Shown here: in pieces, positions 27,154 to 29,396 of the stretch
Layout of the letters: every line of letters begins with the position of its first letter
How positions within the stretch are numbered: the first letter of the stretch is position 1
NCBI GenBank assembly: GCA_031416075.1
Contig: JANOSY010000019.1
Span: 1-29,396, forward strand
Reading direction: 5' to 3'
DNA length: 29,396 nt
Origin: Candidatus Tenderia sp.
GTDB taxonomy: Bacteria > Pseudomonadota > Gammaproteobacteria > Tenderiales > Tenderiaceae
The notes under the pieces: model-generated
Told to the model about the DNA's origin: nothing
The model's database searches: none
Seen by the model: only the letters and a program-made list of their open reading frames with translations
Position numbers and translations under genes: made by a program

Positions 27154-27309
27154 TGCAGAATAACGATTATAATTAATCCGACATTTACAAATAATTAATA
27201 GATCATCCCTCACCGATGATTTCCGAGTCGGTCTTTTCCGGCGTATTCCGAACTCCCTCAGAACCTTTCGTTTTCCCTATATCTTTCAGTGGCCGACAAT
27301 AAATCACTT

Positions 27310-28566
27310 ATGAATCTAACCGAACTAAAAAAAATGACCGCAGCCGAGCTTATCGAGCTGTCGATGGAGATGGGCCTTGAGAATATGGCCCGTAGTCGTA
27401 AGCAGGACATAATTTTTGCTGTCTTGAAAGGGCACGCCAAAAAGGGTGAGCCAATCTCCGGGGATGGTGTGTTGGAGATATTGCAGGATGGTTTTGGCTT
27501 TTTGCGCTCTGCAGACTGCTCATATCTTGCCGGGCCTGATGATATCTATGTATCGCCCAGTCAGATTCGTCGTTTTAATCTTCGCACGGGTGACAGTGTC
27601 ACCGGCAAGATTCGCCCACCTAAGGAGGGTGAACGTTATTTTGCGTTGTTGAAAGTTGATTTGATCAATTTCGAGCCGCCTGAGAACTCTAAAAACAAAG
27701 TATTGTTTGAGAATCTTACCCCGCTGTTTGCCAATCAGCGCCTCAAGGTGGAGCAGGGCAATGGCAGTACTGAAGATTTGACTGCTCGTGTGATTGAGCT
27801 GGTGGCACCTACCGGTAAAGGTCAGCGGGCCATGATTGTTTCTCCGCCTAAAGCGGGTAAGACTATGATGTTACAGAACATTGCCCAATCCATCGCTGCC
27901 AATCACCCAGAGTGTTATCTGATCGTCTTACTTATCGACGAGCGTCCCGAAGAGGTGACAGAGATGTTGCGTTCTGTGCGTGGTGAGGTGGTTGCCAGTA
28001 CCTTTGATGAGCCTGCCAGCCGTCATGTACAAGTGGCGGAGATGGTCATTGAGAAGGCCAAACGTCTGGTTGAGCATAAACGTGATGTGGTGATTTTGCT
28101 TGATTCGATTACCCGTCTGGCGCGTGCTTACAATACGGTTATTCCTTCGTCAGGCAAGGTATTGACAGGGGGTGTCGATGCCAACGCCCTGCACCGTCCA
28201 AAGCGCTTCTTTGGTGCTGCCCGTAACATCGAAGAGGGTGGCAGTTTGACGATTATTGCTACGGCGCTGGTTGAAACTGGCTCACGTATGGATGATGTAA
28301 TTTACGAAGAGTTCAAGGGTACCGGTAACATGGAGTTACACCTTGATCGTAAGATTGCTGAAAGACGTGTCTATCCGGCTATCAATATCAATCGTTCGGG
28401 TACCCGTCGTGAAGAGTTGCTTACTAAGCAGGATGAGTTGCAGAAGATGTGGATTCTGCGCAAGCTGCTGCATCCGATGGATGAGTTGGCGGCGATGGAG
28501 TTTCTGCTCGATAAGCTTAAGGATACCAAGACTAACGATGAGTTTTTTGACTCGATGAGACGTTAG
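27310..28566 (+). CDS. rho: transcription termination factor Rho
   Basis: Motifs [50 protein letters not shown] and GTGNME. Confidence 0.99.
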
Positions 28567-28765
28567 TCAGCCATCTAAGTGAATGGTGGGTCTTAGAGCC
28601 TATTCCAAATCTTTCTGACTTCTTCTCAAGAGCAGCACGAGGAAAGCCAGATTCACAAATTGCAGGCTGGTATTGAGTTGTCGTTCGCAGTTTTTCCATA
28701 ACCTCCGACATTTTTCAATCCAGGCAAACGAACGTTCGACGACCCAGCGCTGCGGTATGACAGCA

Positions 28766-28788
28766 CCAAAAGTAGGCGCCTCTAGGCG
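28766..28788 (-). repeat. 23-bp insert, copy 1 (CGCCTAGAGGCGCCTACTTTTGG on the - strand)
   Basis: Interrupts codon TT|T of HTFAVIP and introduces an in-frame TAG; exact reverse complement of 29292-29314. Confidence 0.93.
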
Positions 28789-29160
28789 AAGGTGTGTAGC
28801 TCATTGCGCTTCGCAATCTCCACGGAGGCGCCCAATAGCTCTCGCACTCCATCGGCAAAAGGCTGTCCGGTATAACCCCCGTCAGCCAGGACATTGACAA
28901 CTCTGGACAGCGTTTTTTTGTGCATAGTAAACGCCTCCAGTGCCCCTGCCCTATCCGTGACATCCGCCGTCGTAACTGCTATCGCATGAGGTAAGCCTTG
29001 GGTATCCACCGCAATATGGCGCTTGATGCCCGAAACCTTTTTACCTGCGTCGTAGCCTTTCTGTTCTGCCGTATCGGTGTTTTTGACGCTTTGGCTATCT
29101 ACGATCAGGAAGGTTGTGCTCTCGCTCCGTCCATTGTTTATACGGGCCTCGCCAACCACA

Positions 29161-29170
29161 TTTTTTTAAA
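29161..29170 (-). other. probable programmed -1 frameshift site of the IS5 transposase
   Basis: Minus strand TTT-AAAAAAA joins ORF A (..ALKK) to ORF B (KNVVGEAR..) in the -1 frame. Confidence 0.75.
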
Positions 29171-29291
29171 GCCTGCTCCAGCAGACTTGGCTCATCTTCC
29201 GACGGCTTTTCTTTCCATAGCTTGAAGTAGTGATACACCGTGCTTTTCGCAGGAAAATCACTCGGTAACATGTCCCATTGACAGCCACTTT

Positions 29292-29314
29292 CGCCTAGAG
29301 GCGCCTACTTTTGG
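29292..29314 (+). repeat. 23-bp insert, copy 2 (CGCCTAGAGGCGCCTACTTTTGG on the + strand)
   Basis: Interrupts the Lys codon of ILKSGCQW; removing it restores the frame. Confidence 0.93.
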
Positions 29315-29396
29315 TAAGAATATACAGAATCGCGCAAAACACCTCGTATAAATCGACTTGCCGAGGCCGCGTCTTCTTTCTTGCGCTTTCAAGTAA

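Follow-up and report, generated by a model that had tools for sequence, protein, structure and literature searches.

A 23-nucleotide REP-like hairpin inserted at exact sites in an IS5 transposase gene of Candidatus Tenderia and in genomes of distant phyla

Two identical inserts in one IS5 gene

The stretch of DNA analysed here (the window) is the whole of contig JANOSY010000019.1, 29,396 nucleotides (nt) long, from assembly GCA_031416075.1 of Candidatus Tenderia sp., a metagenome bin of 3.49 Mb in 95 contigs that we refer to as G000, with the window as its contig C19. The last 800 bases of the window are an IS5 insertion sequence (IS) that runs off the contig end directly downstream of rho, and within its transposase gene the 23-nt sequence CGCCTAGAGGCGCCTACTTTTGG (the 23-mer) has two exact matches, in opposite orientations. 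We conclude that the 23-mer is a minimal single-unit mobile hairpin resembling the repetitive extragenic palindromic (REP) sequences and that it has spread across phyla. The features of the locus are as follows, in window coordinates.

28590-28602, no strand: approximate right end of the IS5 element; blastn similarity to contigs C49, C66 and C18 starts at about 28590-28593.
28603-28764, reverse strand: IS5 transposase C-terminal piece, downstream of site 1; DDE_Tnp_1 positions 157-199 of 200, DDE_Tnp_1_2, and transpos_IS5_3 positions 214-258 of 258.
28766-28788, reverse strand: 23-nt hairpin insert, copy 1 (site 1); exact match, excision restores the frame.
28791-29165, reverse strand: IS5 transposase DDE-domain piece between the inserts; DDE_Tnp_1 positions 4-98 and transpos_IS5_3 positions 80-204.
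29098-29289, reverse strand: IS5 first reading frame, from site 2 to the slippery run; transpos_IS5_3 positions 44-85, and the list of open reading frames (ORFs).
29161-29167, reverse strand: run of seven A (seven T on the forward strand), in the overlap of two IS5 reading frames; seen in the sequence and in the overlapping ORFs 29095-29271 and 28782-29159.
29292-29314, forward strand: 23-nt hairpin insert, copy 2 (site 2); exact match, excision restores the frame.
29315-29396, reverse strand: IS5 N-terminal piece upstream of site 2, to the end of window and contig; open frame ...LLESARKKTRPRQVDLYEVFCAILYIL.

A first-pass annotation made from the letters of the window had reported the two 23-mers as inverted and 503 bases apart, and both the matches and the spacing hold exactly; none of 100 dinucleotide-preserving shuffles of the window contained a match. 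The same annotation had taken them for true insertions into an otherwise readable gene. In-silico excision of the copy at 29292 joins ...CAILYIL^KSGCQWDMLP... (a caret marks the insertion point throughout), excision of the copy at 28766 joins ...RNELHT^FAVIPQRWVVERSF... (...NELHT^FAVIPQRW...), the IS5 pieces flanking the inserts match Pfam DDE_Tnp_1 and NCBIfam transpos_IS5_3 at neighbouring profile positions, and a related IS5 on contig C49 is empty at site 2, all of which bear the insertion model out. When each copy is read along its own strand, TT precedes it and T follows it, giving the 26-bp perfect inverted repeat that had been described, and the target is duplicated at neither insert. 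Copy 1 is sense to the IS5 gene and lies between HT-F and AVIPQRW, about eight codons upstream of the VVERSF motif, while copy 2 is antisense and lies between ILYIL and KSGCQW in the N-terminal part of the protein (DUF4096, helix-turn-helix). Each insert shifts the frame, and the IS5 gene is thus knocked out unless the insert is precisely removed.

The frameshift run that the annotation placed between the inserts is present at 29161-29167 and, by analogy with other members of the IS5 family, is likely to be a programmed -1 frameshift site. Contigs in two public sequencing runs, X3 and X8, extend past position 29396. On the other side of the element, an intact ORF of 425 codons on the forward strand (27289-28566), which we take by eye to encode transcription termination factor Rho, stops at 28566, some 25 bases before the end of the IS5.

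Copies in the rest of the genome

The window holds no third copy, as the annotation stated, yet five more lie elsewhere in G000: a genome-wide search returned six perfect copies, those of the window included, and one truncated copy with differing first bases (C18), and similar sequences occur naturally well beyond this genome, as set out below. All seven are inside IS genes or IS remnants. The genes broken by the six perfect copies, identified with Pfam and NCBIfam, are IS5 transposases (twice in the window and once on C49), an IS4 transposase (C14), an IS91 transposase (C82, in a frame with Zn_Tnp_IS91 and Y2_Tnp) and the istB gene of an IS21 (C83). At every one of these six the family profile runs on across the break and excision in silico restores a long reading frame; three are sense and three antisense to the interrupted gene. 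Comparison with other IS5 copies in the same genome again agrees with insertion, for the IS5 of C49, 78% identical to that of the window, has an identical 23-mer at site 1 and a clean 23-base gap at site 2.

The altered copy (G000:C18:37186-37208) has the 3' part of an IS5 on its 3' side and unrelated DNA on its 5' side. Here and at the public loci L067 and L099 the first two to three bases of the 23-mer differ (CTG.. or CTC..) and the 5' DNA is unrelated, and these copies look like rearrangements or truncations with their breakpoint at the foot of the hairpin. The insert-bearing contigs C82 and C83 share ends of 139-141 bases with four other contigs each, which makes them repeats that the assembly graph has collapsed, or else strain variants; if so, the insert-bearing IS copies may be present more than once. 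Beside the IS91 transposase, a Phage_integrase-family gene (G000:C82:1279-1787) is found as two overlapping pieces in different frames and may be frameshifted, though not by the 23-mer, which is at 898-920.

Occurrence in other genomes

When 61 related genomes were searched with up to three mismatches, the 23-mer was found in eight; among these are each of the genus's four other species and 7 of the 16 other genomes of the family, and none of 44 sampled genomes from other families of the class had it at this threshold. A public scan of bacteria and archaea, with one genome per species and positions 1, 2, 11 and 12 of the 23-mer left free, gave at least 126 matching stretches. Among the matches listed, to which the counts of public loci given below also refer, are many from Methylobacter, together with Sulfuricella, Sulfurimicrobium, Geobacter, Geotalea, Nitrospirota, Methylophilaceae and others, and they span the phyla Pseudomonadota, Desulfobacterota and Nitrospirota. 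Named isolates are among them: Methylobacter tundripaludum SV96, with 18 copies in its record at up to three mismatches, M. svalbardensis LS7T4A, Methylotuvimicrobium sp. KM1 and Geotalea toluenoxydans JCM 15764. Outside the phylum of the window, both isolates and metagenome-assembled genomes carry the 23-mer. Copy numbers per genome run from 7 in G000 to 18-19 in others. Viral contigs gave no match.

Public runs were compared with the window as assembled Logan contigs; the listing of runs that hold the sequence contained no RNA run. Two of these contigs, X3 record 16 and X8 record 23, come from two other studies and cover 29152-29396 without gaps, with one and no differences respectively, so that site 2 is filled there too. 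The 23-mer is natural, neither engineered nor an assembly artefact. An Rfam scan of 12 loci at E-values up to 1 gave five weak, unrelated matches, none of them at a 23-mer, and within the literature searched no paper describing the 23-mer was found, either by sequence string or by words.

A hairpin that resembles a small REP

The unit opens with a 4-bp stem around a 4-nt loop (CGCC-TAGA-GGCG), and an 11-nt tail, CCTACTTTTGG, completes it. Forty distinct variants were found, of which 39 were aligned and one with four mismatches was dropped. Stem positions 1-4 and 9-12 are paired in 88.5% of cells, against 28-47% in slid controls, and ten cells have changed on both sides of the stem, against 2.0 +/- 1.3 in shuffles, a value reached in none of 500, although kinship among sequences can beat shuffles without any structure. 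Compensatory changes are seen at three of the four stem pairs: CG to UA or GC at 1-12, GC to CG at 2-11 and CG to UA at 4-9. The public pattern fixed positions 3-10 and 13-23, and variation at 3, 4, 9 and 10 therefore comes from the mismatch-tolerant searches only.

The complementary strand reads CCAAAAGTAGG-CGCC-TCTA-GGCG (CCAAAA-GTAG-G-CGCC-TCTA-GGCG), in which GTAG precedes a small perfect palindrome at a distance of one base. The corresponding TAC at positions 15-17 stays the same, or almost so, throughout the 39 variants. In passages of PMC8266576, REPs are described as having GTAG (GTRG) 5' of a palindrome and as being cut single-stranded by TnpA_REP, at a CT or CA dinucleotide beside the hairpin, with cleavage and strand transfer reported in vitro only. 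The same passages tell of group 3 REPs in which the stem can be as short as 5 bp around a 4-nt loop, placed two bases from GTAG, and mention a 23-nt REP in Stenotrophomonas and one of 5-bp stem and 4-nt loop in Marinomonas. Within G000 itself, the REPs beside one gene for a REP-associated tyrosine transposase (RAYT), on C55, read ..AAAAAGTAGGGTGGGCatcGCCCAC and have the head AAAAGTAGG in common with the complementary strand of the 23-mer.

A second tiny hairpin insert, of 28 nt (GAGCCTGCCCC[A/G]CGAAG[T/C]GCTTTGGGCA), was noticed in the same genome, with 22 copies at up to four mismatches on contigs C2, C15, C17, C24, C33, C45, C50, C56, C58, C66, C70, C75, C76 and C89. It has an apparent compensatory A..T / G..C change, several copies lie at ...CTCACCACGAA^CGG... 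within another repeat that is found in its empty form at a Methylobacter locus (L059), and on visual comparison it is similar to the inverted repeats on either side of the C87 RAYT gene.

Filled and empty sites

Empty and filled forms of one site were found side by side in several places. In the relative G004, a miniature inverted-repeat transposable element (MITE) of 143 nt, with terminal inverted repeats of about 28 nt, has four empty copies (...CCGCCT^TGCGC...; ...CCGCCTCGCGC... in L184). Its filled forms comprise one with a single 23-mer (166 nt), two with a 23-mer inside a 23-mer at CTACTT^TTGG, and two further copies with three to four nested 23-mers, some of them inside the hairpin loop; the target is duplicated in none of these. 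In isolate G061, the arm ATCNGYGT^CATCYGYGTTCYAT of a hairpin repeat has 55 matches, of which 39 are empty, 6 are filled with exactly 23 bases and 10 are other.

One copy of the same 143-nt MITE (L185, compared with L184) carries a different insert of 23 nt, CACCCCTCAAGGGGGTACCGAGG, at GCGTT^GGAAAC. Like the 23-mer it consists of a hairpin and then a TAC-containing tail, and it suggests a wider class of tiny hairpin inserts; a search of G000 allowing three mismatches found no copy.

The IS5 of the window also has counterparts without the insert. A 432-letter contig of run X3 aligns to 28727-29181 (455 positions) with no other letters and 23 gap positions; from the number of gap positions, and because the span contains the site-1 23-mer, we read it as the same IS5 lacking the site-1 insert. 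Contigs of diverged IS5 relatives in runs X1 and X9 reach 28765 and continue with AAGGTGTGTAATTCATTGCGC..., which is the post-insert sequence of a diverged IS5 copy. On this reading, run X3 holds a contig empty at site 1 and, separately, one filled at site 2. In a relative, separate IS5 copies have nested 23-mers at site 1 (L163, L165, L166) and a diverged 23-mer at site 2 (L168). Because other IS5 copies carry site 1 or site 2 separately, the pair in the window is the product of two independent events at recurrent hot spots and not a unit.

To describe the target, 168 distinct instances were reduced to 78 flank clusters. The base before the insert is T in 69 clusters and the base after it is T in 60 and C in 17, with slight preferences at -4 to -2, and CCT^TGC is the sequence at many sites of the window's family. 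The age of the inserts can be gauged from the IS5 genes of C19 and C49: over 148 codons around site 1, 71% of synonymous sites differ (pS 0.71) with a ratio of non-synonymous to synonymous change (dN/dS) of 0.04, so that the two diverged long ago as working genes, and their 23-mers are identical at 23 of 23 positions. This points, as does the X3 contig with 23 bases fewer, to inserts much younger than the IS lineages that carry them, and to the same nucleotide position having been struck more than once.

The same alignment has further irregularities. Opposite about 29070-29085 of the window (alignment columns ~361-370) the (AACAG)n run of the C49 IS5 is longer by 10 bases, a difference that shifts its frame. 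Synonymous difference is about 10% over the first 303 aligned bases, with frames picked by eye, and 71% over the last 458, which suggests that these IS5 copies are of mosaic origin. The N-terminal block gave a dN/dS of about 1, a figure set aside as unreliable since frames were picked by eye and C49 has a stop.

Genes and repeats that host the inserts

Outside G000, the genes found interrupted in related genomes are an ISAs1 transposase (L009), a RAYT (L161, where one flank matches NF047646 and tblastn gives 44% identity to a RAYT of G000), IS5 at both sites and a methyltransferase (L020); a weak Phage_integrase match lies at the insert of L012. For the public loci, 135 open frames of at least 60 codons abutting a junction, from 66 loci, were searched against Pfam. 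In three of them a domain is cut at the junction, namely IstB_IS21 (L044, a frame that reads through once the insert is removed), RVT_1 (L058) and Y2_Tnp (L097), and none of the 135 has a housekeeping domain split by the insert. Other Pfam matches begin or end some tens of codons from the junction, which places those copies beside genes and not within them, and most long frames across public junctions match no Pfam family and are probably not genes. Most public copies lie in hairpin repeats of tandem 8-9-nt units or in MITE-like elements.

Intragenic copies are therefore almost all in mobile-element genes. The first-pass annotation had raised targeted inactivation of the IS as one explanation. 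Part of that idea stands, in that all six perfect copies in G000 break transposition genes, of four IS families; as for targeting, the simpler explanation is purifying selection against frameshifts in useful genes, and it is probably this that produces the bias.

Proposed mechanism

With moderate confidence, we favour the reading that the 23-mer is a minimal REP-like mobile hairpin, that each copy is a separate insertion, and that it is moved as a single strand by a RAYT-type HUH transposase. The insertions, their natural spread and the occurrence of filled and empty forms are established: the unit enters between T and T or C, adding exactly 23 bases without duplicating the target, in either orientation and at times inside an earlier copy. 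On the proposed model the folded single strand would be recognised, cut and rejoined by a RAYT-type enzyme (REP-associated, of the Y1 HUH class). Inserts that shift the frame would persist only in dispensable genes, and such genes would ferry them between hosts. The absence of target duplication, the seamless empty sites, the use of either orientation, the conserved hairpin and the short target all match an HUH mechanism; handling of single strands by HUH enzymes is described for IS200/IS605 ends and for REP/TnpA_REP in passages of PMC8266576. The annotation's further suggestion, that the inserts are scars of another mobile element, came closer than its other options, and needs amending in that the 23-mer itself behaves as the insertion unit, as its nested copies illustrate.

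The enzyme step is the part that we hold more loosely, at a little under an even chance, because no RAYT gene flanked by 23-mers was found, because the presence of RAYT does not track that of the 23-mer in the family, and because the insert borders lack a constant CT or CA. Several observations weigh against the proposed mechanism. G000 has RAYT genes on C87, C55, C89 and C36, and none of its eight PF01797 (Y1_Tnp) matches shares a contig with a 23-mer. In isolate G061, with its 18 copies, all 11 Y1 matches lie more than 1 kb from the closest copy, the shortest distances being 3.9 and 7.4 kb, and tblastn with the Y1 proteins of G000 found nothing in public loci L023-L148. A RAYT gene flanked by 23-mers (a REPtron) may still exist outside the public matches listed. 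The RAYT loci of relatives carry other REPs and not the 23-mer, and RAYT homologues occur in 14 of 17 genomes of the family, those free of the 23-mer included, and so do not discriminate. Across the 78 flank clusters the borders have no constant CT or CA on both sides. No strand bias is seen in the isolate, where local GC skew gives 8 of 18 copies and the coding strand 9 of 18; both are crude proxies, and the copies there lie within larger repeats. The near-identity of the 23-mer across phyla favours horizontal spread over the vertical inheritance that published abstracts describe for systems of RAYT and REP doublets forming hairpins (REPINs). Finally, the ordinary intergenic DNA of G000 holds no copy, so that tolerance alone is no explanation of where the copies lie.

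G000 also has a second class of Y1 genes, at C26:35617-36931 and C77:12617-13312 (L151-L153), encoding proteins of 232-237 residues that score below the NF047646 cut-off. Tandem 10-nt units such as CACAAAAGAT precede these genes and bring to mind the hairpin repeats in which the 23-mer sits in Methylobacter, whose arms are also built of tandem units.

Alternative explanations

The failure to find a cognate RAYT leaves some room for a different mover, either a nuclease or recombinase not yet recognised, carried by an element that spreads horizontally, or, while DNA is replicated, microhomology-guided switching of template from a donor copy. Near-identity of the 23-mer across phyla would suit such an agent, and the CCT^TGC found at many sites of the window's family could serve as microhomology. 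Template switching would not, however, reproduce exactly these 23 bases at dozens of unrelated sites or keep the stem by compensatory change, and the REP head AAAAGTAGG, the hairpin and the unduplicated target all fit HUH chemistry; we regard this explanation as possible but clearly the less probable one. More doubtful again is a mechanism aimed at mobile DNA. In its broad form, the 23-mer would be the smallest self-contained insertion unit so far observed to act across phyla, with landing sites mechanistically biased to mobile DNA (the transposase genes of six or more families, one gene each for a RAYT and a reverse transcriptase, and MITE- or REPIN-like repeats), and would serve as a hyperparasite of transposons or as an off-switch reversed by seamless excision, a reading that we consider unlikely. 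Taken as a rival to the RAYT model, in which a transposon parasite, or a host tool that turns transposases off and perhaps on again by precise excision, is directed at such DNA, it is rather improbable. The observations that invite it are considerable: transposition genes are hit by 6 of 6 perfect copies in G000; in relatives the interrupted genes are ISAs1, RAYT, IS5 at both sites and a weak Phage_integrase match, against one methyltransferase; the split public domains are IstB_IS21, RVT_1 and Y2_Tnp; copies in non-coding DNA sit in MITE- or REPIN-like repeats; IS5 lineages with saturated synonymous sites were struck at the same two places; and one contig is identical to the window IS5 but 23 bases shorter across site 1. 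Yet selection alone predicts survival in dispensable genes only, the target is merely T^Y (Y, T or C) plus weak flanks, and many of the 78 flank clusters are single sites beside ordinary genes. A protein or guide recognising unrelated transposase genes was not found, and we know of none.

The remaining explanations carry little weight against the RAYT-type hairpin model. The first-pass annotation had offered the inverted 23-mers as recombination sites bounding an invertible or excisable segment of 549 bp, as a 26-bp perfect inverted repeat with arms 503 bp apart might suggest. Comparison with other copies does not support this: each site is filled alone in other IS5 copies, the 23-mer stands singly in unrelated genes and repeats, and neither the joints nor inversions appear in assembled contigs of four runs. 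As the annotation had also observed, there is no recombinase gene near the inserts, with no PF00239 (Resolvase) match in G000 and none of the six PF00589 (Phage_integrase) matches on C19; an invertible unit is thus very improbable. We think it just as improbable that the inserts are removed or bypassed at the level of RNA or translation, as an intron-like or hop element, leaving the transposases functional. The remainder of each interrupted ORF is intact, and the insert-bearing IS91 and IS21 contigs join several others and may be multi-copy, as such a bypass would allow; against it, three of six copies are antisense to the interrupted gene, copies also occur in non-coding repeats and nested in each other, no Rfam family matches, and harmless inserts would be expected in housekeeping genes too, where a split domain was not seen. 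A non-natural origin, whether from adapter sequence, misassembly or a landing pad built for Cas9, had been considered in the annotation on the grounds that the sequence reads as 20 nt plus TGG, and it also contains a GGCGCC site. Its probability is negligible. Natural variants, compensatory stem changes among them, occur in 8 of 61 related genomes, named isolates and many independent assemblies carry the 23-mer, contigs of independent studies and metagenomes carry it as well, and an origin by artefact or engineering is refuted by these variants, isolates and contigs.

Significance

How REP-type hairpins spread in genomes is still debated. The 23-mer family offers clean natural evidence that a single hairpin unit of 23 nt can be added at an exact position: its alleles are seamlessly empty or filled, copies nest in one another, hot spots recur and the same sequence is met in distant phyla. 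The question is open to testing in cultivable carriers such as the Methylobacter and Geotalea isolates. The family also matters for annotation, since IS genes that look intact become apparent pseudogenes through these inserts, which could be mistaken for engineering scars or assembly errors. A mechanistic bias to mobile-element genes, if true, would be a new kind of interaction between mobile elements.

Comparison with known systems

The nearest described things are REPs and REPINs on the one hand and the small dispersed repeats (SDRs) of cyanobacteria on the other, the two groups to which the word searches of the literature led. SDRs, which Elhai et al. are said to have described in 2008 from heterocyst-forming cyanobacteria (Genome Res 18:1484), are reportedly mobile-looking, 21-27 nt long, and inserted precisely at defined positions as well as within other repeats, with nested insertions. 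The 23-mer is like them in its 23 nt, its exact filled and empty sites and its two- to four-fold nesting. To our knowledge, interruption of transposase genes by SDRs has not been reported. The likeness is one of description, and the hosts differ, being Pseudomonadota, Desulfobacterota and Nitrospirota here as opposed to cyanobacteria; passages of PMC3116915 and PMC2884548 cite SDRs as possibly mobile repeats of about 20 bp.

Other systems share single traits with the 23-mer. IS200/IS605 elements, as described in passages of PMC8266576, likewise insert 3' of a short motif without target duplication, are recognised through hairpins and leave seamless empty sites, whereas the 23-mer has one hairpin in place of distinct left and right ends, and has no ORF and no tnpA. 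MITEs are likewise short, non-coding, multi-copy and non-autonomous, but the 23-mer has neither terminal inverted repeats nor target duplication, is several-fold smaller, and itself sits inside MITE-like elements. Invertible segments of the Hin, Gin or Fim type also have inverted repeats at their borders, and differ in that no dedicated recombinase is nearby here.

It is to REPs and their RAYT partners that the 23-mer compares most extensively, both in likeness and in difference. A single base separates GTAG from the small perfect palindrome that follows it, an arrangement like that of group 3 REPs, compensatory changes have preserved the stem, the head AAAAGTAGG recurs in the REPs beside a RAYT gene of G000, and several RAYT genes are present in that genome. 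In contrast to REPs, the stem is only 4 bp, the copy number, 7 to 19 per genome, is low, every copy in G000 is intragenic where REPs are extragenic, the sequence is near-identical across phyla, and no RAYT gene flanked by 23-mers was found. Passages of PMC3116915 propose the REPIN doublet as the replicating unit; the 23-mer inserts as a single unit.

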